NCBI GenBank assembly: GCA_963735035.1
Contig: CAVTJJ010000004.1
Span: 416,001-480,000, forward strand
Source of the DNA: an uncultured candidate division Zixibacteria bacterium
Lineage (GTDB): Bacteria > Zixibacteria > MSB-5A5 > GN15 > FEB-12
Length of the DNA stretch: 64,000 nt
Reading direction: 5' to 3'
Shown: piece after piece, positions 48,521 to 64,000 of the stretch
Layout: each line of letters starts with the position of its first letter
Position numbering within the stretch: the stretch's first letter is position 1
Program-made: the position numbers and the translations under genes
Notes under the pieces: generated by a model
What the model saw: only the letters and a program-made list of their open reading frames with translations
What the model was told of the DNA's origin: nothing
Database searches by the model: none

Positions 48521-50097
48521 CCTCTGTCCCGCTGGCACAACGCAAGCCGCTGATTCTATCGGCTCTGTTTCTGGTTTTGACCGTCTTGCTGGCGGGCGGG
48601 AGTGCTGTCTACGTTTTGTCCGATGTCGGTTTGAAGGACAGTCTGGATCTGCTCCGGGTGGCGGCTACGGTCAATCAACTCTACCAGCATGAAGTCAACT
48701 GGGACAAGCTTACTCAATCGGCGATGGAGGGAATGTTCTCCCGCCTGGATCGTTACTCCGGATATGTTCCGCCTCGAACATGGGATCGGATGCGCGAAGA
48801 ACTTGGTGGGAGTTACTCCGGCATAGGGATTTCGGTGACGGAGGACGAAAACGGACTGCTGGTTATGTCGGTCCGCGAAAGCGGCCCGGCGGCCACGGCC
48901 GGCATTCTCACCGGCGATGTAATTATTGCCGTCGATAGCACACGGCTACGGGGCCTTACCGCCGAAGAATCGACCGATATCCTGCGCGGGCCGGAAGGAA
49001 CGAACGCCGAGCTCATGGTGCTTCGGCCGGTCGATCACGACACGCTGAAAGTTACCGTGACCCGCAAGGAGATCGATTTCCAGCATATCCCATTTGCCGG
49101 GTACACGCCCGATTCAGTGCTCTATATCCGGCTGCTTGATTTTGACGCCGGTGCTTCGCGCGACGTAAAGTCTGCTCTTGATTCTCTTCTGACCAAGCCA
49201 GGAACCCGGGCCCAGGGGGTAATACTAGACCTTCGCGGCAATCCGGGGGGGTTGTTTGCCGAGGCTTTTCAGACCGCCAATCTGTTCCTTGAGAAGGGAC
49301 GGTTCATAGTCGGTACAGATGGCCGCTCACGCTGGGAAGAGGAGAGCTTCTACTCGCAGGGACCGGATATAACTCACGGCCTCCCGATGGCGATACTGGT
49401 GGATCGAGGTTCGGCGTCATCGTCCGAGATCGTGGCCGGGTCTCTCAGCCAGTTGGGGCGGGCAGTGTTGGTCGGCGACACTACTTACGGCAAGGGGCTG
49501 GTGCAGGGGTTCAGACGGCTGGACGACGGCAGTGGTGTTCGGCTGACCGTGTCACGCTACTATCTGGCCGGTCCACTCTATCTCAATCAGTTTGACACTA
49601 CACTCAACGAGACCGGGCGGGGCCTGCCTCCCCAGCACGTCGTCAAGTTTACTGATGAAGAGCCGTTTCCGTGGGCGCTGGAGCGCTCGCTGCTCTTGAA
49701 TCGCTTTGCTACCGGCCATCAGGACGAAATCATTGCCGCTACAGATCAGTTTGACCTTGATGACTCCTGGATCAATCGGTTCGAGCAATACGCCCTCAGC
49801 GAAGGGTTCAAATACAATTCGCTCACCACGGACCGAGCGGTGGGTCTTTCCGAAGAGGCGGTCAAAGAGGACGTAACGCGCCCGCTCCGACTTCAAGTAG
49901 AAAGTCTGTTGGAGCAGTCCCGAAAGATGGATCAGGGCGAATTCACTCGCCATGGACAGTACATCAAAATGAGACTCAAACAGATCGCGCTCGAACGCAA
50001 GTTCGGGAGCTACATCGCCTATCTGAAAGCCGTGGTGCCCTCGCGGTCTGATATTCAAATTGCCGCCCAACTCCTGAAATCACCCGATCATGACTGA
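48517..50097 (+). CDS. S41-family C-terminal processing peptidase
   Basis: PDZ GIGI, ILDLRGNPGG, SASSSEIVAG, TYGKGLVQ. Confidence 0.92.
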   Translation: MTSVPLAQRKPLILSALFLVLTVLLAGGSAVYVLSDVGLKDSLDLLRVAATVNQLYQHEVNWDKLTQSAMEGMFSRLDRYSGYVPPRTWDRMREELGGSYSGIGISVTEDENGLLVMSVRESGPAATAGILTGDVIIAVDSTRLRGLTAEESTDILRGPEGTNAELMVLRPVDHDTLKVTVTRKEIDFQHIPFAGYTPDSVLYIRLLDFDAGASRDVKSALDSLLTKPGTRAQGVILDLRGNPGGLFAEAFQTANLFLEKGRFIVGTDGRSRWEEESFYSQGPDITHGLPMAILVDRGSASSSEIVAGSLSQLGRAVLVGDTTYGKGLVQGFRRLDDGSGVRLTVSRYYLAGPLYLNQFDTTLNETGRGLPPQHVVKFTDEEPFPWALERSLLLNRFATGHQDEIIAATDQFDLDDSWINRFEQYALSEGFKYNSLTTDRAVGLSEEAVKEDVTRPLRLQVESLLEQSRKMDQGEFTRHGQYIKMRLKQIALERKFGSYIAYLKAVVPSRSDIQIAAQLLKSPDHD

Positions 50098-50773
50098 GCC
50101 TCGGACCGTCATATTCTGCGATTTCGACGGAACCGCGGCTACGCGCGATGTCGGATACAATCTCTACCATCATTTCTCAGGCGGGAAGAATGACGCCCTG
50201 TTGCCGGACTGGAAGTCCGGGCGGTTGACGACCCGGGACTGCATGCGACTCGAATGCGAGATGGTGCAGGCGACACCCCAGGAGATAGATGACTTTCTCG
50301 ACCCTTTTGGTCTTGATCCGACTTTCGCGCCATTTGTAGGCCTTTGCGGCACATCGGGTATTCAGGTCATAATCGTATCCGAGGGGCTGGAGTTCTATAT
50401 CAGGAAGCTGCTTACGCGGGAAGGCCTCGAAGATTTGGAGGTCAAAAGCAATATCGGTCATCGGGAGAACGGTGGCCTTCGGATCGAATTTCCTTACGAG
50501 TTTCGTGTCTGTGCGGGGTGTGGCAACTGCAAGGCCGCCCGAATTGAGGAGTATCGTCGGGCCCAATCTGAACCCTGCCGGGTGGTGTATGTGGGCGACG
50601 GCTACTCCGATGCCTGCGGGGCCGGGGCGGCGGATGTCGTCTTTGCGAAAAAAGACCTGATCGACTATTGCGAGACAAACGGCATTTCGTATTATAGATA
50701 TGCTAATTTCAAGGACGTTTCCGACCGATTGATACAACAAGGGCTCCTGAAGCCCGGACGTATGTCATTTTGA
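50090..50773 (+). CDS. HAD-IB phosphatase (MtnX-like)
   Basis: FCDFDGT, IVSEG, CGNCK, YVGDGYSD, VFAK. Confidence 0.88.
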   Translation: MTEPRTVIFCDFDGTAATRDVGYNLYHHFSGGKNDALLPDWKSGRLTTRDCMRLECEMVQATPQEIDDFLDPFGLDPTFAPFVGLCGTSGIQVIIVSEGLEFYIRKLLTREGLEDLEVKSNIGHRENGGLRIEFPYEFRVCAGCGNCKAARIEEYRRAQSEPCRVVYVGDGYSDACGAGAADVVFAKKDLIDYCETNGISYYRYANFKDVSDRLIQQGLLKPGRMSF

Positions 50774-50786
50774 TGAAAGCATAGGA

Positions 50787-53290
50787 ATGAAAGCAGTCGT
50801 CATGGCCGGCGGTTTCGGGACCCGACTCCGCCCGCTCACGATAAATACACCCAAACCGATGGTGCCGATCGGCAATGTCCCGATGATGGAACATGTGGTC
50901 GGGCTGCTGGCGCGCCACGGTCTCACCGATGTCACATCGCTGCTCTATTTTCATCCTGAGAGTATTCGCAACTATTTCGGTGACGGCTCCAGGGTCGGCG
51001 TCCAGATGGCTTACGAAAAGCCGAGCGATGATCTCGGTACCGCCGGGGCAGTTCGCTATGCGTTGGGCGAGCCCCGCGAACCGGTGCTGGTGATATCCGG
51101 CGACCTGGTGACCAATTTTGATCTGGCCGAAGCCATAAAATGGCACAAAGAAAAGAAGGCCGACGCCACTATCCTGCTCACTCGCGTAGAGAATCCGATC
51201 GCTTACGGCATTGTCATCACTGACGATGACGGCCGAATTGTCGAATTCCTCGAAAAGCCCACCTGGGGCGAGGCGTTCTCAGACACCATCAATACTGGCA
51301 TTTATATTCTCGAACCTCAGGCGGCGGCGCTGATCCCCAAGGACGAGAATTTTGATTTTTCCCAGAACCTGTTCCCGCTCATGCTCAAGAACGGCATGAA
51401 GCTTCACGGGAAGATTATGGACGGGTACTGGAAGGATGTGGGCAACACCGACGAATATTTCCGCGCCCACTTCGATCTCTTTGCCGGCGACCTGACTTTG
51501 CCGCTCAAGAACAGCAAGGAAGAAATTGACGGGGCCGTAGTCTACAAGGGTCGCAATGTTCGTCTCGGTCAGGATGTGAAATTCTCCGGCACGGTGCTTC
51601 TGGGTGATGACGTCAATGTGGGTGACGGCGCTCAACTCTACAACTGTGCCCTCGGCCAACGGGTAAGGGTGGGTTCGCGCAGTAGTATCAAAGACTCGGT
51701 AGTCTGGTCGGATACGGCCATAGGCAGCGAGTGCCGCTTCTCGCGCGCCCTGGTTTGTGCCGCAGTACAGGTCGGCGACAATGTTGAGCTGGCCGATCAC
51801 TCGATCGTTTCCGACGAATGCGTGGTCGGCGATTCCGCGACGGTTCGGGCTAACTGCAAGATCTGGCCGGGGAAGAAAGTCGACGAGGGCGCGATTGTGT
51901 CATCGTCGCTGGTCTGGGGCGACGCCTGGAACCGGGAGCTGTTCACCGATTCGAAAATAACCGGTCTGGCGCTGACCGAGATTACGCCGGAGATGGCGGT
52001 CAAGGTTGGGGCGGCGTTCGGCGCTACGCTCGGTCAGGGCAGCGCTGTCGTGACGAGCCGCGAAGTTTCCGACGTGGCCCAGTTGCTCCGTCGTTCCGTG
52101 ATGTCCGGCCTGATGGCGTCCGGGGTCAATGTTTATGACCTCGAGACTCTCCCCGTGCCGGTTGTGCGGTATGCACTGAAGAAAGGCGACTACGCTGCCG
52201 GCATGTATGTTCGCCACAACCCGGTCGACTATCGTTATCTCGATTTCATATTCTTCCACGGCTCGGCGCTCGACATGCCGACCTCTCAGCTCAAGAAAGT
52301 TGAGCGCAATTATTTCGGCGAAGACTTCAAGCGCGCTTCGATCAGCGAGATCGGTCACCTGGACTACCCGCAGCGGGTGTTGCGTGACTACCAGGCTGAT
52401 TTCATGGCCGAGGTTGATGTCGATATCATCCGCGAGGCCGGGTTCAAAATTGTGGTCGATTACGCCCACGGATCGTCGTCCGAGGTATTCCCCGATCTGT
52501 TCTCACGCCTGGGCATCTCCAGCACCGAGTTGAATTCCCACCCGAATCCGCTGAAATCGTCGGTGCCGCCCGAAGAGTCAGCCCGTGCTACCGTGCAGCT
52601 TGTCGGCCATCGTGCGCTCGCTCAACGCCGACGTGGGCTTCCGCGTCAATCCGGCCGCCGAGAAACTGACCGTGGTGGACGAAAACGGCCGCCCGTTGGA
52701 CGATCAGACGCTCTTGATGCTGGTAACTGAGCTTTATATTCGTACGCATCATCCCGAGAAGATCGCTGTTCCGGTGGCGGCGTCGATGGGGATCGAAGAG
52801 ATCGCCGACCGCTACGGAGTACAGGTCGTGCGGGTGACGAACGACCATCAGGCGATGATGAAAGTCCACATGTCGGGTGAGGTTGATTTTGTCGGCGGTA
52901 CGCGCGGCGGCTTTGTCATGTCGACGATTCCACAGCGGTGCCGACGCCATTTTCGCACTGGTGAAACTGCTTCAAATGATGGCGCAGACCCGGGGCCGCC
53001 TGGGACACCTTCGCACCAACTACGAACACCTGGTGCGGCAAACCGTCTCGGTACCCTGTCCCTGGTCGCGCAAGGGGACGGTCATGCGCCGACTGATCAC
53101 CGAGTCGGTGAACAAGCGACGGCAATTGATCGACGGCGTCCGCATTATCGAGGATGACGGCTGGGTGTTGATCGCGCCGGACCGGTTCAACGCGGCGTTT
53201 AATATCTTTGCCGAATCGAAGTCGCGTAAGGTGACCGAATCGCTTATCAGCAATTATAAGTCGGTGGTGGAGAACTGCCAGGAAGCGTAG
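50787..53290 (+). CDS. Mannose-1-phosphate guanylyltransferase fused to phosphomannomutase-like domains, two apparent +1 frameshifts
   Basis: MAGGFGTRLRPLT..PKPMVP, EKP, DTINTGIY, hexapeptide repeats, then PMM-like core. Shifts near 52600 and 52925. Confidence 0.85.
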
Positions 53291-53316
53291 GGCAGGTCGC
53301 CGGCAAAAAGGCATGG

Positions 53317-53347
53317 GCCGCCGACCTCCCACGGTCGGCGGTTTCTT
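53317..53347 (+). terminator. Terminator-like hairpin
   Basis: GCCGCCGACC-TCCCAC-GGTCGGCGGT followed by TTCTT. Confidence 0.65.
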
Positions 53348-53348
53348 G

Positions 53349-54426
53349 TTATTGTGTGCGAGGGGCTGGTGCAGGCGGTGCAAAGAACGATGTTCCCATG
53401 ACGCTGTCAAAACGCTGGCCGACGTCTCGATCCGTGAGATTTCGAGTGTTGCACCCACGCATCCGGATGGCGTTATCGGTGGTATTGAAGTAACATAGGC
53501 GAGTCCGCTCAGTATTGAAGCAGGTACCGAAGATCTGCAAGCCACTCGAGTCGTTTCGCGGCACCACCACGTCAAAGTCGTACTTGAGCGTATCGCCGGT
53601 AGCAAGATCGAACTGGAATGACGTGTCGCCGAGGCATCTGACATGATCGGTGAGTATTCTGATGCGAACATCCTTGCACATCGCATCCCCTCGAGCAAGG
53701 AGTCTCAGACGAACCACGCTGTCCGTGGCCACCATGTGAATCGGATTTATGTCCATGTCGAACATGTTCCTCGCCGTATCGATAACTCCCCCGTCCGCGG
53801 CATTGGGGATTGGCCCCGCCGAAATGTGGTTCCATACGGCCTCCTGATCTGCCCGGAACCTCGCATCTAGCTGCTTCATTGCCACAGCTCTCGGCCTCTG
53901 CTTCTGCCCGCGCTCGCGCCTGTGGGCTGAACCGAAAGTCGTACGGATAACATCTAACTGAGTCCTGGGTCTGCGACGAACGAGTAATGTGCCACCAGTG
54001 CGATCGCTTACGCCGGACCACCCTAACTAAGTTCAAACGCGCTTGTGTCAGACGCCGGAACGACGAGGTCGATGTAGTATGTGAGAGTATCTCCGACCTT
54101 ACCCGGAAAGGTCCAATTAGTGGCGAGGTGCATTGAAGCTTGTCCAGATTTGTCTAAGGTTACCGATGATGTCGCTGCATTCAACCTTGGGTACGACGGT
54201 GAGTTCAAGTCTCAATGGTCCCGGCCGAGTGGGCGAAGTGACAACCTGATCGCCGCTAGACTTCAAAGGGACCATTCTCAACCAACGGCGGAAATCCGCC
54301 GTCCGTTCCATATTGTGGAATGGTATCATCTGAGAATTCGACTACTGCCGAATCTGTAAGCACTTGCCCTACCAAGCCGCACACCGCCCATAGAGATGCT
54401 GACAAGAAGATCGCACGCCAGTTCAT
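53349..54426 (-). pseudogene. Fragmented secreted hypothetical protein with an internal duplication (pseudogene or error-rich sequence)
   Basis: AGGAGG plus ATG 54426 (MNWRAIFLSASLWAVCGL). Pieces in several frames, including GDTLTYYIDLVVPASDTS and GDTLKYDFDVVVPRNDSS. Confidence 0.5.
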
Positions 54427-54714
54427 GATTCCCTCCTATGTCGTTCCCGTTTTCGATACCCCTGCATTACTCTGATCACTATGCGACCACACATCTGAAA
54501 CCCCGGTCTCCGGGCTATCATCCTTGTTCCTCAGATTCTGCCGCTAATTGGAGACAACCTTCCTGCCTTACTATACACCCCTTTCTGCAGCCTGCCAAGC
54601 GAATAACCGCGTCGTGGGCCTACAATAGTCTGACAAATCTCCCTATTGCCTCGGAGTATCTCGAATTGTATCTTCATCGATCCGGTAACTCGCCTCTTTT
54701 GAAGGATTGACGCA

Positions 54715-56114
54715 ATGGACTACAAAATTCGAACCAAAGTTTCCCGCATACTGATCGATGACGCCGTCCCGGCGGATACGGCTATTACTGTTCTTGGCTG
54801 GGTCAAGACGGTCAGGGTATCCAAGGCCGTGGCTTTTGTCGAGATCAACGACGGCTCCTGCATGGGGAATCTTCAGGCGGTTGTGGCCGATCCAGACAAA
54901 TACCCGGTGCTGGAAAAGTTGCTCACCGGGGCGTCGGTGCGGGTCAAAGGGAAATTGGTGGCGTCGCAGGGCCAGGGCCAGAAATACGAACTGGCGGTCG
55001 AGACCCTCGATCTGATCGGCGAGGCCGACCCGACCTATCCGCTTCAGAAGAAACGCCACACGTTTGAATATCTTCGCGAGATCGCCCATCTCCGGCCGCG
55101 CACCAATACGTTCGGGGCGGTCGGCCGGATGCAGCTCCAAGATCGCCTACGCCATTCACAAGTACTATCAGGAACGCGGGTTCTTCTATGTCCATACGCC
55201 GATGATTACGGCGTCGGACTGCGAAGGAGCCGGCGATATGTTCCGCGTGACCACGCTCGATCTGGACAACATCCCGCGCAAGGAAGGCAAGATCGATTGG
55301 GACGCTGATTTCTTCGCCTCGGAAACGTACCTGACCGTGTCGGGGCAGCTCGAGGGCGAGCTGATGGCGACTGCGCTGGGGGATATCTACACGTTCGGGC
55401 CGACTTTCCGCGCCGAGAACTCCAACACCAGTCGCCATGCCTCGGAGTTCTGGATGATCGAGCCGGAGATGGCCTGGGCGGAGATCGATGACAACATGGA
55501 TCTGGCCGAGGATTTCCTGAAATACCTGTTCCGGTTTGCGCTCGAAGAATGCGCCGACGACATGGCGTTCTTCAACCAGTGGGTGGACAAAGATGTCATT
55601 CGGACGCTCGAGAGCGTGGTCAATTCGCAGTTCGAGCGGATCACTTATACGCAGGCGATTGACATTCTCAACAAGTCGGGCGAGAAGTTTGAGTACCCGA
55701 CCGAATGGGGCTCAGATCTTCAGAGCGAACACGAACGCTTCCTGACCGAGAAGAAAATCGGGCGACCGGTAATAGTGTCCGACTATCCCGGAGAAGATCA
55801 AGTCGTTCTATATGAGAATGAACGAGGACGGCAAGACGGTCGCCGCGATGGATGTGCTGGTGCCGAAAGTGGGCGAGATCATCGGCGGGTCACAGCGCGA
55901 GGAACGCTACGACGTGCTCATGGACCGGATCAAGGCGAAGGGGATGACCGGCATGGAGAACTACTACTGGTATACTGATATTCGTCGCTGGGGTTCGGTG
56001 CCGCACGCCGGGTTCGGACTGGGGTTCGAACGCGCGATGATGTACATCACGGGCATTTCGAATATCCGCGATATCCTGACTTTCCCGCGAGTTCCGCGGT
56101 GGGCGAAGTTCTAG
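54715..56114 (+). CDS. asnS: Asparagine--tRNA ligase, two apparent +1 frameshifts
   Basis: [75 protein letters not shown]. Shifts near 55132 and 55787. Confidence 0.96.
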
Positions 56115-56128
56115 GTTGGGTCTATGGT

Positions 56129-56188
56129 GGTTGGTGTACGTCCTCGTGCACCAACCTGTCTTGTAGGGCAGGTCCGCTTCGAACCTGC
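56129..56188. repeat. Two REPs at the left edge of the CRISPR cassette
   Basis: GGTTGGTGTACGTCCTCGTGCACCAACC, and GTCTTGTAGGGCAGGTCCGCTTCGAACCTGC which matches 41025-41055 with compensatory stem changes. Confidence 0.7.
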
Positions 56189-56198
56189 ACTTCCACAC

Positions 56199-56308
56199 AA
56201 GAAAAGACGCCCGTTCTGGACGGGCGTCAAGGGTGCTCCGTAGAGCAAAACCTTCGAGACGGTTGTCTCTTACTGAGACTTGACTAACAACCGCCGCTTG
56301 AGTACATT
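56199..56308 (-). ncRNA. tracrRNA
   Basis: Minus strand: 37-nt anti-repeat AATGTACTCAAGCGGCGGTTGTTAGTCAAGTCTCAGT, nexus-like GAGAC-AACC-GTCTC, hairpin AAGG..TGCTC-TACG-GAGCA.CCTT, terminator GACGCCCGT-CCAGA-ACGGGCGTC-TTTTCTT. Confidence 0.9.
56280..56308 (+). promoter_or_regulatory. Predicted cas9 promoter inside the anti-repeat
   Basis: TTGACT-17 nt-TACATT, ending 45 nt before the cas9 ATG. RBS AAGGGGA at 56342-56348. Confidence 0.6.
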
Positions 56309-56314
56309 ACTGGC

Positions 56315-56343
56315 TAAATACACTACGTTCGACCACCTGTCAA
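56315..56343 (-). promoter_or_regulatory. Predicted tracrRNA promoter
   Basis: TTGACA-17 nt-TATTTA (imperfect -10). Predicted +1 falls at the first base of the anti-repeat (about 56308). Confidence 0.5.
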
Positions 56344-56353
56344 GGGGAAATAC

Positions 56354-59300
56354 ATGAACCACGACAACGGTGAATCCAAACATCTGGGAATCGACCTTGG
56401 CCCAAATTCCATCGGGTGGGCGTTGGTTGAAGCGCCAGACAACAATACTCATCAGCTTGTCGTATCGGGTGTTCGCGTCTTTGAAGCGGGACTTGATAAA
56501 CTAGAATCCGACGGCAAAGGGGAATCCCGCAATGTCGCCCGACGTGCCGCGCGTCAGTCGAGGCGGGGAATTGAAAGAAGAGGCAGAAGGCTCACAAAAA
56601 TAGCCAACATTCTGCAGCGAGCGGGCCTTTTACCTGAAGGTGATCTGACCGACAGCGAGATCAGGCACAAGATATTGACGGAGCTTGATCTCAAGGTGGG
56701 CAATCCATACTCACTTCGTGCGCGTGCCCTTGATGAGAAATTGTCCAAACACGAACTCGGTCGCGCCTTGTTCCATTTGGCGCAAAGACGCGGCTTCCTC
56801 AGTAACCGCAAATCGGCGCCCAAGAAAGACGACGAGACTGGCAAAGTCAAAGCAGGTATAAGCCAGTTGAAGAAAGATATTGAAGCGTCTGGCTCGCGCA
56901 CACTCGGCGAGTATTTCAGTCGCATAGATCCGTTTCAACACCGGATACGGACGCACTACACGCATCGCTCGATGTATGAGCATGAGTTCAATCTCATCTG
57001 CGAGTCACAGAGTCGTTTTCATGCAGATGTATTGACAGATGATCTTAGAAAGATTCTTCACAAGGCGATCTTCTTTCAGCGGCCGCTCAAGAGCCAATCG
57101 CATCTGATTGGCAAATGCGAACTGGAACCGAAATACCGCCGCGCCCCTTGGGCGTTGCTCTGTGCCCAGCAATTCCGGTATCTGCAAACAATCAACAATC
57201 TGCGAGTGCTTGATGTCCCGAACCGCGAATTTCCGGAGTTGACCCCGGCCGAGCAATTCGCATTGGCAGAAAGGCTGGAATATCAGGAAGAGATGACTTT
57301 CGGTGCGGCGCGCAAGTTGTTGAACCTGCCCAAAACAAGCAAATTCAGCATTGAATTGGGCGGCGAGAAGAAGATCAAAGGCAACAGGACTGCGGCCTGC
57401 CTTGCCAAGATATTCGGCCTGGAGCGATGGCAAGCCATGACATCGGAAGAGCGCGACGCGGTGGTGGAAGACTGGCGAAGCATTGTCAAGGAAGAGACGC
57501 TCAAGAAACGCGGCATGAACAAATGGGGTCTTGACGAAGTCGCCGCAGAAGAACTGAGCCACCTGAATCTTGAAGAGGGCTATTGCTCAATGTCGCGTCA
57601 GGCTATCGCAAAACTACTGCCGCGACTTAGCTGTGGTGAAGCCCTGCAAACCGCTATCAAAACCGTGTACCCGGAACGCTTTGAACGCGTTGGTGCGGCT
57701 GTTGATACCCTGCCTCCAGTACGGGAATACTTCCCCTCGTTGCGGAACCCAATAGTGGAACGCGCTCTTACGGAATTGCGGCAAGTAGTGAACGCCATTG
57801 TTCGCGAGCATGGAAGACCCGCCGTGATTCGAGTTGAGCTGGCACGCGAACTGAAACAGCCGGCGAAGAGTCGCGAGGATACTATCAAGCGGATGCGCGC
57901 CAACGAAAAAGACCGGGCGAAGGCGGCGGAAAGAATACTTGAGGAAGCGAGAATCGCCAATCCGTCTCGGAGTGATATCCTCAGGGTTTTGTTGGCTGAG
58001 GAATGTGAGTGGACTTGCCCTTACACCGGCAGGCATTTCGGTATGACTGAAATCGTCGGAGATTCGCCGCAATTCGATATCGAGCATATCATCCCGCTCC
58101 ATAGGTGCCTTGACGACTCTTACATGAACAAGACCCTCTGCTATGCCGACGAAAACCGAAACCGCAAACGTGATCGAACTCCGTTTGAGGCCTACGCAGG
58201 CACCCCACAGTGGGATGAAGTTGTCGCACGGGTAGGAAAGTTCAAGGGCACGGCGGCAAGAGCCAAGCTGCAGCGCTTTCAGATGAAGCCTGAGGAGGTT
58301 GGGGCGTTGCTCGACAATTTTACTTCCCGGCAGTTAAACGATACCGCTTATGCCTCCCGAATGGCGAAGGAATATCTCGGACTTCTATTCGGCGGTCAGG
58401 ACAGCGACGGCATTGATGCCTCCAGTCATCGTCGCGTGCAGTGTACCAACGGCCAGGTCACAGCTTTTCTGCGCAATGTCTGGAGCCTCAACAGCATTCT
58501 TGGCGACGGACCCCGCAAGACCCGCGACGACCACCGCCATCACGCTGTTGACGCCGTCGTGGTCGCCCTGACCGATGCCGGCGCGGTCAAACGTCTGAGC
58601 GACGCGGCTTCTCGGGCCAAAATCGAGCGGCGGCGGCAGTTCGGCAAGGTGCCCCTACCGTGGGAGACATTCGATCAGGATGTTCGGCAGAGCATCGACA
58701 ACCTGGTCGTTTCGCACCGGCTCGATCACCGGGTAAGAGGTGCGTTTCACGAGCAGACTTTTTATGGTCGCCCAAGCCTCGGAGACGATGGCAAGCAGTA
58801 CGTACACACTAGGAAGCCGATTGAGAGAATCTCAGCCAAGGACATCAAAGACATTGCCGACAAGGCGGTGCGTGAATGTATCGAAAAGGCGCTCAGTGTC
58901 CTGGGGCAATCGAATCCTGCTGATGCTTTCAAAGACCCGGCCAGTCATCCGATCCTCAGCGGTGGAAACGACACCAGCAGGCCGATTCATCGGGTGCGAT
59001 TGAAGTCCTCTCTGAGGACTTTCGAGATCGGTTCCGGGCATCGTTTGAGGCATGTGGTACCAGACCGCAACCACCACATGGAGGTCGTGGAATTGCTCGA
59101 TGATAATGGGAACACCACCGGTTGGGAAGGGCATGTCGTTGATCTGTTTGAGGCGCGCCGTCGACTCGACCGGCGTGAACCGGTCATCAAGAAAGACCAC
59201 GGGTCGGGGAAATGCTTTCTATTTTCTCTGGCCAACGGCAACGTTATTGAATTGGACCAAGACGATGGTTCTCGTGGACTTTGCATCGTCCGAACCATCG

Positions 59301-59461
59301 AGACAAGTTCCAATATTAGGTGGGTTAGTATAAGAGATGCCCGGAAGTTGGCTGGTCGATCTAAAGCCGGTGAGACGGCTCGGCCGGATCCACTCCGAAA
59401 GAAGAACTGCTGCAAAGTAACAGTCGATCCGCTCGGCCGAGTCCGGCGAGCGCGTGATTAG
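56354..59461 (+). CDS. cas9: Type II-C CRISPR endonuclease Cas9 (1035 aa)
   Basis: RuvC-I LGIDLGPNSIGWA, Arg-rich bridge helix, HLAQRRGFLSNRK, RuvC-II IRVELARE, HNH FDIEHIIP..DDSYMNKTLC...N, QLNDTAY, RuvC-III DHRHHAVDA, C-terminal KVTVDPLG. Confidence 0.98.
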   Translation: MNHDNGESKHLGIDLGPNSIGWALVEAPDNNTHQLVVSGVRVFEAGLDKLESDGKGESRNVARRAARQSRRGIERRGRRLTKIANILQRAGLLPEGDLTDSEIRHKILTELDLKVGNPYSLRARALDEKLSKHELGRALFHLAQRRGFLSNRKSAPKKDDETGKVKAGISQLKKDIEASGSRTLGEYFSRIDPFQHRIRTHYTHRSMYEHEFNLICESQSRFHADVLTDDLRKILHKAIFFQRPLKSQSHLIGKCELEPKYRRAPWALLCAQQFRYLQTINNLRVLDVPNREFPELTPAEQFALAERLEYQEEMTFGAARKLLNLPKTSKFSIELGGEKKIKGNRTAACLAKIFGLERWQAMTSEERDAVVEDWRSIVKEETLKKRGMNKWGLDEVAAEELSHLNLEEGYCSMSRQAIAKLLPRLSCGEALQTAIKTVYPERFERVGAAVDTLPPVREYFPSLRNPIVERALTELRQVVNAIVREHGRPAVIRVELARELKQPAKSREDTIKRMRANEKDRAKAAERILEEARIANPSRSDILRVLLAEECEWTCPYTGRHFGMTEIVGDSPQFDIEHIIPLHRCLDDSYMNKTLCYADENRNRKRDRTPFEAYAGTPQWDEVVARVGKFKGTAARAKLQRFQMKPEEVGALLDNFTSRQLNDTAYASRMAKEYLGLLFGGQDSDGIDASSHRRVQCTNGQVTAFLRNVWSLNSILGDGPRKTRDDHRHHAVDAVVVALTDAGAVKRLSDAASRAKIERRRQFGKVPLPWETFDQDVRQSIDNLVVSHRLDHRVRGAFHEQTFYGRPSLGDDGKQYVHTRKPIERISAKDIKDIADKAVRECIEKALSVLGQSNPADAFKDPASHPILSGGNDTSRPIHRVRLKSSLRTFEIGSGHRLRHVVPDRNHHMEVVELLDDNGNTTGWEGHVVDLFEARRRLDRREPVIKKDHGSGKCFLFSLANGNVIELDQDDGSRGLCIVRTIETSSNIRWVSIRDARKLAGRSKAGETARPDPLRKKNCCKVTVDPLGRVRRARD

Positions 59462-59476
59462 CCTGCCCAAACCATA

Positions 59477-59967
59477 AATGTACTCAAGCGGCGGTTCGTG
59501 TCAAGCCCCAGCTGTCTCTACCTTCTCACGCCGTGGGGCGTAAATGTACTCAAGCGGCGGTTAGCTGTCAAGTCCCAGCTGGACTACGTATTGATTGCCC
59601 TGTTGCTGGAATGTACTCAAGCGGCGGTTAGTGTCAAGTCCCAGCGCCGTGGGGCGTACAGGCGCAATCGTCAAAATGTACTCAAGCGGCGGTTCGCGTC
59701 AAGTCCCAGCTCAGTACGTATTCCATGATTAAGTCCTTTCAATGTACTCAAGCGGCGGTTCGCATCAAGTCCCAGCGCAGTCGGTGGGCTGATTCGGTAT
59801 CTACCAATGTACTCAAGCGGCGGTTCACGTCAAGTCCCAGCTCACCGTTCACCTGTCCGCTACCTAGTCGAATGTACTCAAGCGGCGGTTTGCGTCAAGT
59901 CCAGCCGACTTGAAGGGATCAGTTATGACCAACGCAATGTACTCAAGCGGCGGTTCGCGTCAAGTCC
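59477..59967 (-). CRISPR. CRISPR array, 8 repeats (about 36 nt) and 7 spacers (29-30 nt)
   Basis: Plus-strand repeat AATGTACTCAAGCGGCGGTTnnnnTCAAGTCCCAGC at 59477, 59543, 59610, 59675, 59741, 59806, 59871 and 59936 (last truncated). Minus orientation inferred from tracrRNA complementarity and the 3' -10 box typical of II-C. Confidence 0.97.
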
Positions 59968-60068
59968 GCCTGACCTACGATTATCCCATTGAACCGCTTC
60001 GCTTCAGCCTCTTTTGGCCCCCTCAAACAATTCTAAATCCTACCCCTCGCTTTGCCGATATAAGAGAC

Positions 60069-60869
60069 ATGGGCTACAAGTCTGACTTACGCCAGGTCCT
60101 GATTGCTGTCTTCGGGCTCGCTCTGAGCGCGCTCGTGATCGGCTGCAATGGCGCGCCGACCAAGAGCAGCAACGAGGACAAATACCGCGTCGACGGTCTG
60201 GTTGTACAGAACCTGAACGTCGACACGGCGTTCATTGCCGCCCGATTCGCCCGCAACGACACCTCGATTACCAACGCCTCGATCAAACTCGCCGGTACGC
60301 CTCTGGGCTATTTCGCGTCGCTTCGAGGCATCCTCGCGGCCTATCAGTCCTGGCTGAAACCGGCAGATTCGCTGGCGGGATCAAGTGTCTATCTTCGTGT
60401 CGCCGACGCCAGTCGCTTCACTGATAGTCTGCCGCTGGGTATCGTAGGCACTTTCGGCCTGACCGACAACTTCCAGCCGCCCAACCATCATCTCCAGGGT
60501 ATGACTAATTATGTCTCTCTGGAATGGACCGCGGCCGCCAACGCGGATAGCTACGTGCTAGCCGCCGTCAAGACGTCACTGGTCGGCACCGGAGCAGGCT
60601 ACAGCGCCCAGGTGACAGCGACCGGCGTGGCCGGAACTATTCCCGCGGATGCCTTCATGAATCCAAGCACCAACCTTCCCGACACCGGGCTTTACAATAT
60701 CTATGTATATGCCTTCAACGACGCCCCCGACTCGGCTTTAGCGACCAAACTCCTGCCGGTGCCGTGGCCAATTCAGGTGACCGAGAATATCGCTCGAACG
60801 TCTCTGAAGGGTCGGTTCGGGTCTATCACCGTGGCGCTCAAGGACACGGTTCGGGTGCTCGCTCAGTAG
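60069..60869 (+). CDS. Hypothetical lipoprotein
   Basis: MGYKSDLRQVLIAVFGLALSALVIGC lipobox. The true start is downstream of the array. Confidence 0.75.
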   Translation: MGYKSDLRQVLIAVFGLALSALVIGCNGAPTKSSNEDKYRVDGLVVQNLNVDTAFIAARFARNDTSITNASIKLAGTPLGYFASLRGILAAYQSWLKPADSLAGSSVYLRVADASRFTDSLPLGIVGTFGLTDNFQPPNHHLQGMTNYVSLEWTAAANADSYVLAAVKTSLVGTGAGYSAQVTATGVAGTIPADAFMNPSTNLPDTGLYNIYVYAFNDAPDSALATKLLPVPWPIQVTENIARTSLKGRFGSITVALKDTVRVLAQ

Positions 60870-60934
60870 CTTCCAGGCTTCAGGGCTTATTGGAAGAAGT
60901 CTCCTCAAGTCACTTTCATGCATTTGCTATATCA

Positions 60935-61050
60935 GCCGGCAGATGTGGGCATCTGCCGGGCACCTGGTGAGAATCGCTGTCGGGCAGATGTGGGCCCGCC
61001 GCGGCGGGCCGGGCACTAGTCAGGCATCTGCAAGTCATCTGCCGGGCGCT
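60935..61050. repeat. REP cluster
   Basis: CCGGCAGATGTGGGCATCTGCCGGGCAC and degenerate copies. Confidence 0.65.
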
Positions 61051-61109
61051 AGTTCTTCCCAATCCGCATTTTAGTTGCCCGTACGGATCGTCACCGATAG
61101 GTTCGTTTC

Positions 61110-62045
61110 ATGGCGGACATGAACGAACTTATCAGCCGATTACGGCAGCTCGATACCGAAAAGGTCAATCCGAACACGGTCGATATCGATCGACTGTCAC
61201 CCGTCGAAATCGCGCGTAAGATAAATGCCGAGGACAAGACGGTTGCAACTGTAGTCGAAGCTGCTCTTGAGCCGTTAGCGAGTGCGGCGCAAGTCTTTGC
61301 CGAAACCCTCAAGAACGGCAAGCGAGTCTTCTATGTCGGCGCGGGGACTTCCGGGCGGTTGGGGGTGCTCGACGCCGCCGAATGTCCGCCGACTTTCGGT
61401 ACCGATCCCAAACAGATAATAGGCTTGATCTCGGGCGGGTACGAGACCTTGATCCTCTCCAAAGAAGGGGTTGAAGACGATGTTCGAGCGGCTGTTGTGG
61501 ACCTTCAGTCTCACCATCTGGCTACGGGCGATTTCGTGATCGGGCTGGCTGCCTCCACTCGAACCCCGTACACGCTTTCGGCTTTGCGATACGCCAAGAC
61601 CTGTGGCTGCCGGACCGCGTTCATCGTATGCAATCTCGCGGGTGGAATAGAAATCAGACCGGACATACTTATAGAATTGCCGGTGGGACCGGAAGCCATT
61701 ACCGGTTCGACTCGTATGAAATCGGGCACGGCCGAGAAGATGGCGCTGAACATCATTTCTACCACCGCCATGGTGCTCTTGGGGAAGACCTACGGAAATC
61801 TGATGGTTGATCTTCAGGCGCGCTCCGAAAAGCTGGCGGCAAGATCACGCAAGATTCTTATCGAGCTGCTGCAAGTCGATCTGCCCAAGGCCGAGGAACT
61901 GCTGCAGCTTTCCGGTGGATCGGTCAAACTGGCGATAGTTATGCACTGGCAGAAATGCGACCGGGCCGAAGCGGAGAAGCGCCTGGCGCAAGCGGGGGGG
62001 TTCATTTCGCGATTGACCAAAGTGCCGCCGGCACAATTGCCCTGA
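61110..62045 (+). CDS. murQ: N-acetylmuramic acid 6-phosphate etherase
   Basis: TEKVNP, GAGTSGRLGVLDAAECPPTFG, GPEAITGSTRMKSGTA, GNLMVD. Confidence 0.96.
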   Translation: MADMNELISRLRQLDTEKVNPNTVDIDRLSPVEIARKINAEDKTVATVVEAALEPLASAAQVFAETLKNGKRVFYVGAGTSGRLGVLDAAECPPTFGTDPKQIIGLISGGYETLILSKEGVEDDVRAAVVDLQSHHLATGDFVIGLAASTRTPYTLSALRYAKTCGCRTAFIVCNLAGGIEIRPDILIELPVGPEAITGSTRMKSGTAEKMALNIISTTAMVLLGKTYGNLMVDLQARSEKLAARSRKILIELLQVDLPKAEELLQLSGGSVKLAIVMHWQKCDRAEAEKRLAQAGGFISRLTKVPPAQLP

Positions 62046-62135
62046 CGAAAATTCAACTGTCATCCAGGTGCAGTCAGGCATCTCGCTACGAGATGCCCAA
62101 CCACACAGATCCGGTCTCAAAGATTCAAGCCGCTA

Positions 62136-62330
62136 CTAGCAGCACTTGGCGTTGTCAGAGCCACCGCAGCAGGACTGCATCTTCTCTTTGATCCGCTTGA
62201 CCTTCTCCGGGTCGTTGCTGGTCAGATTGATACAGATACCGCCGTCAGTCTCTTCAACCTTGCAGGACAGTCCTTCGCACATGTTCTCGGCGGACGTCCC
62301 ACAGCAGATGGTTACTTTCTTCTCAGTCAT
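62136..62330 (-). CDS. Small cysteine-rich protein (64 aa, 9 Cys)
   Basis: AAAGGAG RBS, three CC pairs, directly downstream of an ArsR gene. Confidence 0.7.
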   Translation of the reverse strand: MTEKKVTICCGTSAENMCEGLSCKVEETDGGICINLTSNDPEKVKRIKEKMQSCCGGSDNAKCC

Positions 62331-62390
62331 GATACTTCGCTCCTTTCATAGATGAATAGGTTAATGTCTATATGACCGGTCACAAAAAAA

Positions 62391-62675
62391 TCACTTTAGC
62401 TCCATCTTTATCGACAACACCTTCATCTGTTGCCCGCAACAATCGACAACCGCCTCGCGATTGAAGCGGTAGTACACCTCGCGTCCGCGTTTGTCGCTTG
62501 TCACAAGGCCGGCTCGCTTCAGAATGTCCAGATGATGCGACACCGACGGTTGGGTAATGCTGAACCGACTGCAGATATCCGACACGCACAACTCCTCATT
62601 CTTGAGCAACTCAAGAATTTTGAGCCGGGTGGGGTCACCCATCGCGAAGAAGGCCTGACAGCATTTGTTATCCAT
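62391..62675 (-). CDS. ArsR/SmtB-family regulator
   Basis: FFAMGDPTRLKILELL, ELCVSDI, TQPSVSHHLDILKRAGLV, KRGREVYY, with N- and C-terminal CC pairs. Confidence 0.93.
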   Translation of the reverse strand: MDNKCCQAFFAMGDPTRLKILELLKNEELCVSDICSRFSITQPSVSHHLDILKRAGLVTSDKRGREVYYRFNREAVVDCCGQQMKVLSIKMELK

Positions 62676-62690
62676 AGTCAATTCTCATCA

Positions 62691-62706
62691 ATAGACATCT
62701 GTCTAT
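62691..62706. promoter_or_regulatory. Candidate ArsR operator
   Basis: Perfect 7-2-7 inverted repeat ATAGACA-TC-TGTCTAT just upstream of the ArsR start. Confidence 0.65.
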
Positions 62707-62973
62707 ACGTCAATATATCGACTTCGGTTTCGAAAATCAAAGGGAAAACTGTAAACGGTCCCAAAAATATTTCGAGGTCGCGTCCCGGGGGGTTCAATTT
62801 CGGCCTGGCGTACCGACAGGTACGCCGAAACGACCCTCCGACGACGAGGTTTCTTTGCTTCAAGTGTTGTCCTTCCAGCAAGTTAGGACTGTATCAACGG
62901 GCCGGCACGAAGCTTGATCCCGGTATTAGCGAAAAGCAAAATTAATTCCTCGATGGAAAGGAGATAGTCCGCA

Positions 62974-64000
62974 ATGTTCAGAAGAATAGTAATACCGTTC
63001 GCGCTGACGGCGCTGTCGATTTGGGCCGCCGGCTGCTCGAAAAACCCGGCGAATCCGGCCGCTGACGCGACTCCGGCCGCGACCCAGGATTTCGGAGGCT
63101 ACACAGCCACTAATGAGGCTCCGGCTTTCGGAGATCAGGAACTACTGAATACTCAGGGCTCGGGAGAAGAAGTGTCCGACCCGATCTTAAGCAGTCCGAC
63201 CACCCTGGAAGTCGTCAATGACGTCAATGCCGGCATCTTCCATTTCCGGGCTGTCTGGGGACGGATACCGTACGATTCCACGATTACAACTGTCACCGAC
63301 TGGACCGGCTCACTGACAATTTCTCGCGGCGCCATCGTGTTGCGGAGAGTGATTCAATTTGAGCTGGGTCAGGATTACATCCTGCCGCGCACCGACCGTA
63401 CCCTGCTACAGTGGGTATCGTTCACCGGGCCGCATCATGACGGCGTAGCGGTCGATCTGTTTGTGCCGCCCGCGCCGCCGACTTTCGACAGCAGCTGGGT
63501 TCCTGCTGACGGTGACTCTGTGCTCGTGATCGACACAATACCGGCTACACCTGTAACGCTTACTTTCGCTACCGGTCCTTACACCAGGACCTTCACACTG
63601 GCTGAATTGGCCTCGCTGGATGAAGTGATTACGCTTGAAGACGGCAACAGTGTGGCGTTTCAGAGTATCCAGATATTCCGCAATGTCTGTCCGCGCGGAG
63701 TACTCGCAGGTAAGTGGGGATATGACGAAGAGGGCAAGGGCATATTCAAAGGATTCTGGATGTCTGGCGCCGGCCATCTGGTTGGCCATCTCGAAGGCAA
63801 CTTCGGTCAGGACAGTCTGGGCGTGAATGTGTTCTTCGGCAAGTGGATTGATGCCTCAGGTCAGTTCCAGGGATTCCTTCGTGGCACCTGGGGCCACAAG
63901 CCTCCGACTGCCAATGACGACTCCCGCGGGAAAGGGCCGGGTGGATGGTTTGCCGGCGGAATTTTCGACGGGAACGGCAATGAGATCGGAGTACTGGCCG
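62974..64000 (+). CDS. Hypothetical lipoprotein, runs off the window
   Basis: Not in the ORF track. AAGGAG RBS plus MFRRIVIPFALTALSIWAAGCSKNP, continuing QDFGGYTATNEAPAFGD. Frame appears open toward the window end. Confidence 0.75.
   Translation, partial: MFRRIVIPFALTALSIWAAGCSKNPANPAADATPAATQDFGGYTATNEAPAFGDQELLNTQGSGEEVSDPILSSPTTLEVVNDVNAGIFHFRAVWGRIPYDSTITTVTDWTGSLTISRGAIVLRRVIQFELGQDYILPRTDRTLLQWVSFTGPHHDGVAVDLFVPPAPPTFDSSWVPADGDSVLVIDTIPATPVTLTFATGPYTRTFTLAELASLDEVITLEDGNSVAFQSIQIFRNVCPRGVLAGKWGYDEEGKGIFKGFWMSGAGHLVGHLEGNFGQDSLGVNVFFGKWIDASGQFQGFLRGTWGHKPPTANDDSRGKGPGGWFAGGIFDGNGNEIGVLA

Follow-up and report, generated by a model that had tools for sequence, protein, structure and literature searches.

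A type II-C CRISPR-Cas9 locus without adaptation genes between asnS and a lipoprotein gene

Analysis of a 64,000-nt stretch of DNA (the window, in whose positions all coordinates are given) confirmed that it contains a real type II-C CRISPR-Cas9 locus without adaptation genes, located inside a 1.63-Mb contig. The cassette is flanked upstream by asnS (54715-56114), which is broken across three frames, and downstream by a lipoprotein gene, the product of which opens with a signal of the lipoprotein type whose last residue is Cys; murQ comes next. Its left boundary is a plus-strand terminator-like hairpin 3' of asnS (56129-56156, a stem of 12 pairs and then a T-rich tail), where homology of the asnS flank to two genomes of the same genus, G002 and G001, stops. 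Beyond it lie a tracrRNA of about 112 nt (56199-56310, minus strand), cas9 (56354-59461, plus strand), a 15-nt junction (59462-59476), and a CRISPR array of eight repeats and seven spacers of 29-30 nt (59477-59971, minus strand). The repeats start at 59477, 59543, 59610, 59675, 59741, 59806, 59871 and 59936. From the asnS terminator to the lipoprotein gene the locus holds tracrRNA, cas9 and array only, leaving no room there for csn2 or cas4. An earlier note on this DNA had described the same anatomy, with a tracrRNA, a 1035-aa Cas9, an array beginning 15 nt past the cas9 stop, and asnS and lipoprotein flanks, and all of these elements were found again.

The tracrRNA consists of an anti-repeat (56273-56310, minus strand), two internal hairpins and an intrinsic terminator (56206-56228, minus strand; a 9-pair GC-rich stem, then TTTTCTT), and its ends were placed from a candidate promoter and this terminator. 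The first 20 nt of the repeat, reverse-complemented, recur without a mismatch at plus-strand positions 56289-56308; past the anti-repeat, the minus strand runs through hairpins to the terminator-like hairpin and T-run at 56228-56206. The 112-nt RNA has a predicted fold of -42.3 kcal/mol (z = -4.28), and cofolding predicted that every repeat pairs with it through a perfect 20-bp helix and a 12-bp helix, with 4 nt on the anti-repeat side of the loop between them. Rfam families had no matches within 55500-60500, as expected for tracrRNAs of uncharacterised clades.

A consensus scan flagged sigma-70-like promoter sites, TTGAC(G/A)-16/17-TACATT, on the minus strand of seven of the eight repeats; promoter-like sites in the region number 12, against 2.1 +/- 1.5 in shuffles. 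Neisseria repeats carry a -10 element only, whereas here each repeat has a full pair of -35 and -10 elements, and the anti-repeat copy of the promoter (TTGACT-17-TACATT, 56280-56308, plus strand) faces cas9, making it a candidate cas9 promoter. The tracrRNA itself may be transcribed from a minus-strand site at 56317-56345 (TTGACA, 17 nt, TATTTA) that is conserved in G002, and which the consensus scan missed because its second hexamer ends in A. The strand of the tracrRNA fixes that of the crRNAs, which would run towards the cas genes, and the promoter-like sites in the repeats lie on the same minus strand. Together with precedent in Neisseria and Campylobacter (PMC3737331, PMC5965381), this strand suggests that the array is read towards cas9.

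The Cas9 protein matched the type II Cas9 profile TIGR01865 end to end (703 bits, residues 10-1029), with Pfam matches to RuvC_III, HNH_4 and Cas9_a. Residues D14, E495, H578, N601, H730 and D733 were invariant in an alignment of six orthologues, and the RuvC-I, HNH and RuvC-III motifs line up with those of the best solved Cas9, which bears out the earlier statement that the RuvC and HNH motifs are intact. The best solved chains (1082-1092 aa, E 1e-77) are presumably the Neisseria enzyme. The earlier description of a small, compact Cas9 did not hold up: 1035 aa is an ordinary II-C size, the best solved relatives having 1055-1095 aa. Membership in the II-C clade was indicated by 67 related loci with adaptation genes, which have only cas1, with or without cas2, after cas9, and repeats of 36-37 nt. 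The closest named Cas9 loci bear labels from many phyla, and Cas9 is not a taxonomic marker.

The cas9 frame is open over 3.1 kb, with no stop and no frameshift. Comparison with G002 gave a dN of 0.16 against a dS of about 2.3, a value that is saturated. Relative-rate tests with four outgroups gave p = 0.05-0.47 with inconsistent direction, so that Cas9 shows no rate acceleration.

Adaptation genes were sought throughout the genome (3.6 Mb in six contigs, 96.9% complete). The cas1 and cas2 models PF01867, TIGR03639 and PF09827 had no matches in the whole genome, and the one hit of TIGR01573 genome-wide, with an E of 0.87, fell within a frame of 747 aa. Across the whole genome the 20-nt core of the repeat occurs only in the array and the anti-repeat, and a k-mer scan of all contigs detected no further CRISPR-like array of more than five units. 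The claim that the module lacks adaptation genes thus survived a search of the whole genome with four family models, in which neither cas1 and cas2 nor a second array with this repeat was found. Adaptation in trans via another CRISPR system was ruled out, because the genome has no cas1 of any kind. Since cas1 and cas2 are absent from both locus and genome, the locus is a derived, adaptation-less form of II-C and not a complete II-C system.

The ancestral state is preserved in G002, a genome of the same genus with a Cas9 77% identical to this one, where the order is tracrRNA-cas9-cas1-cas2-leader-array with the same repeat. Downstream of cas9, G002 has 54 nt, cas1, cas2 and a 54-nt leader; here there are 15 nt only. 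The locus here and that of G002 (L012, L117) share the first 20 and last 12 nt of the repeat, the anti-repeat, the tracrRNA promoter and the asnS neighbour, and cas9 DNA identity (73%) is within the 69-82% of flanking housekeeping genes. They differ in that cas1, cas2 and the leader are still present in G002, whose repeats, at least 28 of them (19 on C84 and about 9 on C52), are identical, and in the orientation of the locus to asnS, which is inverted in G002, where a sigma-factor-like gene pair separates the two. In G001, also of this genus, the asnS-lipoprotein site is empty.

Among eight Cas9-bearing relatives, cas1 lies within about 110 nt of cas9 in five; a contig end truncates the locus in two others, and in G034 there is no such cas1. 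We also collected 87 related loci, 72 of which contain the Cas9 C-terminus and 71 of which were assessable (one piece of DNA enters twice, as L014 and L020); cas1 follows cas9 in 67 of the 71, 63 of them also with cas2. Relatives normally carry cas1-cas2 and a leader at the very point where cas9 and array meet here, in line with the earlier note, which placed cas1-cas2 and the acquisition end of the array of II-C loci at this position. Because G002 keeps the full locus and 67 of 71 loci have cas1 after cas9, the comparison indicates that cas1, cas2 and the leader (~1.3 kb) were lost by a deletion specific to this lineage, after its split from the same-genus relative. Precise excision through a repeat-like sequence behind cas9 was considered and set aside, as no such sequence was seen just 3' of cas9 in G002.

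The array differs from those of active systems in the variation of its repeats. Six of the seven internal repeats are off consensus, while none of 51 arrays beside cas1 and cas2 (981 repeats) shows any varying internal repeat. Other loci without cas1 also vary: all five repeats differ in L018 and three of six internal repeats differ in L027. Variation among repeats can therefore be used to recognise frozen arrays, and the guide set here, which was earlier proposed to be frozen, does look so, since no new spacers can be added.

The changes have a pattern. Variable columns are 21, 22, 23, 24 and 30 of 36; columns 21-23, on the crRNA side of the internal loop, all vary, against two of the 33 others (Fisher p = 0.0014). 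Both stem changes yield G-U wobbles, and cofolds of all repeats keep both helices at -51 to -58 kcal/mol, while the 20-nt helix and the -10 element are retained in all eight repeats. Related metagenome arrays differ at the same middle positions (AGCG, TACG, GTTG, CCTG), their last 12 nt being constant. Import of repeats from other lineages was rejected: every variant lies a single step away from CGCG or AGCG, and other lineages have TACG, GTTG or CCTG. Repeat divergence thus appears to have begun, limited to sites where the crRNA:tracrRNA duplex tolerates change. Independent substitutions are few, about 6-8, and the four variants that lie one step from the loop sequence CGCG each arise by a CpG transition, which means that a CpG mutational hot spot could account for part of the loop clustering without selection; the two upper-stem CpGs never vary. 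Repeats 2 and 7 contain 1-nt indels, which may be assembly errors, because the assembly carries frameshifts in at least three neighbouring genes, two of them within the sole asnS; the quality of the sequence qualifies the other findings too.

The far end of the array is a fusion. In terminal repeat R8 (59936-59980), nt 1-32 of the repeat run on into the right half of the REP element found in this genome. Its last 24 nt (59957-59980) match REP copies exactly, and the hairpin consensus is shared by 42 other copies. This terminal part belongs to the REP/RAYT family, and six Y1_Tnp genes were found in the genome. Repeat and host REP hairpin share an 11-nt identity, through which a REP element may have recombined with the array, trimming its far end.

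Searches for targets of the spacers turned up no protospacer and no self-target above chance. The best match in the host genome covers 20 of 22 nt at E 0.18, and all others are 12-17 nt long (no more than 14 nt exact) at E 0.19-3.0, as chance gives; self-targeting was rejected accordingly. Spacers 1 and 3 have 13 nt in common, which would be expected from two captures off one foreign target. A 22-nt pattern across this overlap had no match in viral contigs, and when the whole array was compared with phage records the only matches, at E 0.5, fell in lysin genes of mycobacteriophages and straddled a repeat-spacer border. Plasmids yielded no protospacer, and 160 genomes of the order gave only repeat-to-repeat and short border-straddling matches. 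These protospacer searches did not yield a PAM; the overlap of spacers 1 and 3 supplied a single inferred flank.

A Cas9 locus of this kind is not new. A 2015 report on Campylobacter coli clade 3 describes cas9 and repeats in genomes that have neither cas1/cas2 nor any further cas gene, with sister lineages that retain cas9-cas1-cas2, and its authors suggested that the locus may be unable to acquire spacers (PMC4607530). The earlier note was right that an adaptation-less module exists here, where close relatives keep cas1 and cas2 and the locus falls within the Cas9-only II-C variant, but the architecture has this precedent, and our comparison added L018 and L027 as further cases and L087 and L079 as partial losses. 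The C. coli locus differs in phylum and Cas9 clade; deletion end points, drift of the repeats in the duplex loop and the REP fusion are documented here, and we found no discussion of repeat heterogeneity in the portion of the C. coli account consulted (PMC4607530). The II-C systems of Neisseria meningitidis and Campylobacter jejuni resemble this locus in a Cas9 of about 1000-1080 aa, an anti-repeat outside the array (PMC3737331, PMC5965381) and a mutated extra repeat at the terminus (PMC12080349). Their array is read opposite to cas9 from a promoter in every repeat, the arrangement predicted here, but they carry cas1-cas2 and acquire spacers.

The likely explanation, in our judgement, is that the adaptation module of a type II-C locus was deleted in this lineage and a working, interference-only cassette was left. 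The tracrRNA would be transcribed from the minus strand and cas9 driven, probably, by the repeat-type promoter within the inverted anti-repeat. By analogy with the repeat-borne crRNA promoters of Neisseria and Campylobacter, seven short crRNAs would each begin at the promoter in the preceding repeat and be read towards cas9. Each crRNA would pair with the tracrRNA by the 12-bp and 20-bp helices round a small internal loop, and the duplex would guide Cas9 to cut matching DNA adjacent to a PAM. The far end of the array would have been cut back by recombination with the REP element. The effector module is probably kept by selection, because the repeat changes are compatible with the duplex, the catalytic residues of Cas9 are kept and no rate acceleration was found.

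Set against this is the less probable reading, to which we still give some weight, that the loss of cas1-cas2 left the locus useless and heading for deletion, cas9 being intact because the loss was recent. The array is indeed short, its seven spacers comparing with 28 or more in G002. Both of its ends have been eroded, one through the loss of cas1, cas2 and the leader and the far one at the REP junction, and its repeats vary, two of them by indels. The empty site in G001 and the changes in G034, which are scattered over the repeats, stems included, as decay would give, are in keeping with such a fate. Decay is harder to reconcile with the absence of any substitution that breaks a base pair with the tracrRNA, with the retention of the 20-nt helix and -10 element in every repeat, with the unaccelerated Cas9, or with a 3.1-kb cas9 free of stops and frameshifts, unlike neighbouring genes here. 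If the deletion was very recent, as the saturated dS would allow, the intact cas9 would say little.

We regard it as very improbable that cas1-cas2 are present but were dropped or collapsed when this metagenome-type sequence was assembled, or that they sit in the 3% of the genome not recovered. Arrays do assemble poorly, and indel-type frameshifts affect asnS and at least two other genes in the window, but the junction sits within the 1.63-Mb contig, repeat collapse does not remove a 1.3-kb unique segment, the same architecture recurs in independent genomes (L018, L027), and repeat heterogeneity confined to cas1-less loci (none of 51 arrays with cas1-cas2 against this one) fits a real, old loss. 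Equally doubtful is the proposal that fixed guides steer Cas9 to the host's own nucleic acids, in gene regulation, rather than to invaders. A guide set that is fixed and kept would suit that role, and the action of Cas9 on endogenous transcripts has a precedent in Francisella (PMC5965381). Host matches no better than the 20/22-nt hit at E 0.18, a spacer overlap that fits a foreign target, and intact nuclease residues all point the other way. The earlier suggestion that the cassette was possibly repurposed is without support, because no self-targets above chance and no protospacers were found.

The locus is a well-documented example of a known state and a natural experiment on the fate of a Cas9 system once spacer acquisition is gone, with a deletion that can be mapped to the base because a sister species retains the full locus. 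More tentatively, adaptation-less Cas9 cassettes might be a recurrent state maintained by selection, a fixed-guide, innate-like immunity and not a step to loss. On that reading, this Cas9 clade would have seen three or more independent origins of such cassettes (G000, G034/L018 and L027), besides the partial losses of L087 and L079; the argument for independence rests on nearest relatives with near-identical repeat consensus (L087/L075 identical; L027/L021 and L079/L071 a few positions apart). Were this so, repeats of frozen arrays would drift solely at sites where both the crRNA:tracrRNA duplex and the promoter within the repeat tolerate it. Such arrays would then amount to mutational scans of the guide scaffold done by nature, and would roughly clock the time elapsed after cas1-cas2 were lost. 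For genome editing the Cas9 is of ordinary size; the changes tolerated in the repeats, at loop positions and wobble pairs, mark scaffold positions that are free to vary and help sgRNA design for this Cas9 clade.

The genome that carries the window, a 3.61-Mb assembly in six contigs (96.9% complete, 0.93% contaminated), encodes a compact CRISPR cassette between asnS (54715-56114) and a lipoprotein-type gene. ORF, profile and repeat analysis confirmed what the earlier note had reported there: a tracrRNA, an intact cas9 and a CRISPR array that begins 15 nt after the cas9 stop codon. The cas9 ORF (56354-59461, + strand) predicts a protein of 1035 aa; the Cas9 equivalog model TIGR01865 covers residues 10-1029 (703 bits), and Pfam matches include RuvC_III, HNH_4 and Cas9_a. 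Five aligned orthologues (48-77% identical) all share residues D14, E495, H578, N601, H730 and D733 with this protein, and each of its three motif regions aligns with the counterpart in the best solved Cas9 chains (6jdq and others, 1082-1092 aa, E 1e-77). The array consists of eight repeats, numbered from cas9 outward (starts 59477, 59543, 59610, 59675, 59741, 59806, 59871 and 59936), and seven spacers of 29-30 nt each. Downstream are the lipoprotein-type ORF, recognized by a signal peptide with a terminal Cys read from the sequence, and murQ. Hairpin elements of ~30 nt flank the cassette and the lipoprotein gene (56159-56188 and about 60924-61016), and are found in tens of copies in the same-genus relatives G001 and G002, forming a second family resembling REPs (short hairpin repeat elements). 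To the earlier note the present analysis adds a probable deletion mapped against the sister species, a contrast between the repeats of active and frozen arrays, drift apparently limited to loop positions and wobble pairs, putative recurrent independent losses in the clade, and a REP junction.

The cassette has the same working parts as type II-C systems of the Neisseria and Campylobacter kind. Upstream of cas9, 56289-56308 are the exact reverse complement of repeat nt 1-20; on the minus strand, two hairpins and then a GC-rich terminator hairpin with a T-run (56228-56206) come after this anti-repeat, indicating that the predicted tracrRNA is a minus-strand RNA of about 112 nt that extends from 56310 to 56199. 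It folds much more stably than shuffled sequences do (z = -4.28; 0 of 200 as good). Because the tracrRNA is predicted on the minus strand, the crRNAs would also be on the minus strand and the array would be read towards cas9; transcription in this direction was shown experimentally in Neisseria meningitidis and Campylobacter jejuni (PMC3737331). Cofolding of each repeat, as minus-strand RNA, with the 5' part of the tracrRNA gave a single duplex architecture for all eight repeats (-51 to -58 kcal/mol), in which a 12-bp helix borders the guide and is separated from a perfect 20-bp helix by an internal loop with 3 nt on the crRNA side versus 4 nt on the tracrRNA side.

A consensus scan identified a sigma-70-like promoter, TTGAC(G/A)-16/17-TACATT, on the minus strand in seven of the eight repeats, with the final six repeat bases as its -10 element. 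Promoter-like sites in the cassette region numbered 12, versus 2.1 +/- 1.5 in shuffles. Promoters embedded in repeats, with the crRNA start inside the spacer, are part of the published type II-C pathway (PMC5965381). The anti-repeat is an inverted copy of the repeat, so the same promoter-like site is present on the + strand at 56280-56308, 46 nt before the cas9 start codon, and is a candidate cas9 promoter. Back to back with it is a candidate tracrRNA promoter, TTGACA-17-TATTTA (56345-56317, minus strand), which was missed by the consensus scan, is conserved in G002, and would start the tracrRNA at about 56310.

A complete II-C system is defined in part by cas1-cas2, but the window locus is without them. 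Profile searches of the genome, for which positive controls matched in known genomes, found no match to the Cas1 models PF01867 and TIGR03639 or to the Cas2 model PF09827, and TIGR01573 gave a single match at E 0.87, within a 747-aa frame, in agreement with the earlier description of the cassette as adaptation-less. The Cas1 and Cas2 proteins of close relatives likewise had no tblastn match in window positions 50001-64000. The repeat core did not occur in the genome outside the cassette, and in a k-mer scan for other CRISPR-like arrays the remaining matches were tandem repeats of 3-5 units; the genome-wide check for further arrays with this repeat, which the earlier note had proposed, thus returned none. 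The view of the earlier note that the cassette is a self-contained effector module is supported as well.

Cas9 homologues were found in 8 of 40 relatives, and in five of these cas1 follows cas9 at a distance of no more than about 110 nt; two of the other three loci are cut by contig ends and one, in G034, has no cas1. In G002, the Cas9 of which is 77% identical to that of the window, the locus lies on one 5.9-kb contig, the tracrRNA has the same anti-repeat and promoter, and cas9 is followed by a 54-nt gap, cas1 (295 aa), cas2 (114 aa), a 54-nt leader and an array of 19 identical repeats, which share their first 20 and last 12 nt with the window repeat. The DNA identity of cas9 between the two genomes (73%) falls inside the 69-82% observed for the housekeeping genes that flank it, indicating that the locus was probably inherited and that cas1, cas2 and the leader were deleted in the line of the window genome. 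In G001 (77% complete), asnS, the lipoprotein gene and murQ are consecutive without a CRISPR locus, an empty site (L118 1750-3050). The G002 locus adjoins asnS, but is inverted relative to it, with a sigma-factor-like gene pair between them (L117 1750-3777); a hairpin immediately precedes its terminal repeat.

A survey by Cas9 alignment against one genome per species yielded 80 loci from many phyla, or 87 with six relatives and the window (L014 and L020 are the same DNA, counted twice). The Cas9 C-terminus was present in 72 of the 87, and 71 were assessable. In 67 of these 71 cas1 is found right after cas9, which bears out the statement of the earlier note that cas1-cas2 normally occupy this position; cas2 is also present in 63 of the 67, and the four cas1-only loci have less than 1 kb of downstream DNA. 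The four assessable loci that lack cas1 are the window, L018 (the G034 locus), L027 and L061, the last of which is uncertain, with only 918 nt of downstream DNA and no array. Partial losses were seen in two loci below the C-terminus cut-off, L087, where a 79-aa cas1 stub is fused to the array (9068-9879), and L079, which has cas2 only (9083-9795). Whole-genome cas1 searches had no match in the genomes of L027, L079 and G034, and found only the stub in the L087 genome; the L061 genome has a short cas1-like fragment on another contig (30 of 283 profile positions, 27 bits). For every locus lacking cas1, the repeat recurs, identical or nearly so, in a close relative in which cas1 is present (L087/L075 identical; L027/L021 and L079/L071 a few positions apart), which argues that the losses of cas1 in this clade are independent and recurrent. 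L018 closely mirrors the window, with 14 nt between the cas9 stop and the array (5190-5500), and L027 has lost cas1 and cas2 and kept an 84-nt leader (9187-9703). A variant published as 'CRISPR-Cas9 only', from Campylobacter coli clade 3, corresponds to the window locus: it is described as having cas9 and repeats and no cas1, cas2 or other cas genes, with sister clades carrying the full operon (PMC4607530).

The earlier note had proposed that the guide set is frozen, and a comparison of repeats supports this: six of the seven internal repeats in the window array differ from the consensus, versus internal repeats in 0 of 51 arrays adjoining cas1 and cas2 (981 repeats), where only the cas-distal terminal repeat differs. 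This count covers arrays of at least four repeats, omitting shorter arrays, cas1-only loci and the unrelated 29-nt repeat of L034. Repeats also vary in L087, L027 and L018, and the four seen in L079 are identical. Substitutions in the window array are found in columns 21, 22, 23, 24 and 30 of 36. Columns 21-23 coincide exactly with the loop positions that the crRNA contributes, the column 24 change (repeat 5) converts a C-G pair to U-G, and the column 30 change (repeat 1) converts A-U to G-U, so that no pair is broken in the cofolds. All three loop columns vary versus 2 of the 33 others (Fisher p = 0.0014), and drift in the array appears confined to the duplex loop and wobble pairs. With two of the column 23 changes the -35 hexamer becomes the consensus TTGACA. 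Metagenome arrays sharing the 20-nt core, which was fixed by the search pattern, have AGCG, TACG, GTTG or CCTG at positions 21-24 and an unchanged 12-nt 3' part, which was not fixed, suggesting that the middle positions are free between lineages too; within each of these arrays the repeats are identical (9/9 and 57/57). A mutational hot spot may contribute to the loop variation, since all four single-step CGCG variants are CpG transitions; the two CpGs of the upper helix never vary, and the substitution events are few in number. Assembly error may account for a 1-nt insertion in repeat 2 and a deletion in repeat 7.

Between the window genome and G002, cas9 has a dN of 0.16 and a dS of about 2.3 (saturated). 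Tajima relative-rate tests with four outgroups (unique changes 69:48, 54:38, 39:50 and 44:51; p = 0.05-0.47) revealed no consistent excess of changes on the window genome branch. As a rough estimate, changes accumulated since the freeze amount to ~3% of repeat positions and about a quarter of those in the loop, and over such a span a neutral 3.1-kb frame would be expected to hold several stops; cas9 has none, an argument that presupposes that the repeat variants are real and that the loop is not a strong hot spot. Elsewhere in the window, asnS, the only asnS in the genome, carries one extra base at each of two sites (near 55131 and 55790) when compared with G001 and G002, and two further genes are each divided between two frames (50787-52727 with 52585-53154; 16465-17115 with 15774-16760); the split genes look like assembly indel errors or real pseudogenes.

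The terminal repeat (59936-59980) is a chimera, more than degenerate. Repeat sequence makes up its first 32 nt, and 59957-59980 exactly reproduce the right half of a REP that has 42 other copies in the genome (for example at window 42959), where six Y1-transposase (Y1_Tnp, RAYT-like) genes are also encoded. The junction is inside 11 nt common to the REP and repeat positions 22-32, and most likely the distal array was lost by recombination between repeat and REP. The REP half was found in none of the other 159 genomes of the order (array query, four candidates scored per genome). A mutated extra repeat is one way in which II-C arrays avoid a spacer-less crRNA (PMC12080349), and in the cofold the change in the terminal repeat costs the lower helix 3 bp.

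Spacers had no match to the host genome beyond chance (best 20/22 nt, E 0.18), leaving the earlier suggestion that the cassette was repurposed without support. Searches of viral contigs (one pattern), phage records, plasmids and 160 genomes of the order yielded no protospacer. Spacers 1 (59513-59542) and 3 (59646-59674) share 13 nt, which close one spacer and open the other. This overlap is consistent with one target captured twice, at sites 17 nt apart, and is a trace of past acquisition; it yields a single inferred PAM-side flank, for spacer 3, too little to name the PAM. One G002 spacer has 9 nt in common with the same stretch.

Unusual layouts were also observed in the same Cas9 clade, with the array between cas2 and cas1 in L025 (5593-7940) and cas1 on the opposite strand in L072 (9308-10192). 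The genome of L024 has one in-frame TAA inside a cas1 match (G168:C52:11750-12439). In L017 (G038:C120, 1103-4861, minus strand), cas9 and cas1 form one open frame of 1252 aa, which is either a Cas9-Cas1 fusion or the result of a lost stop codon.
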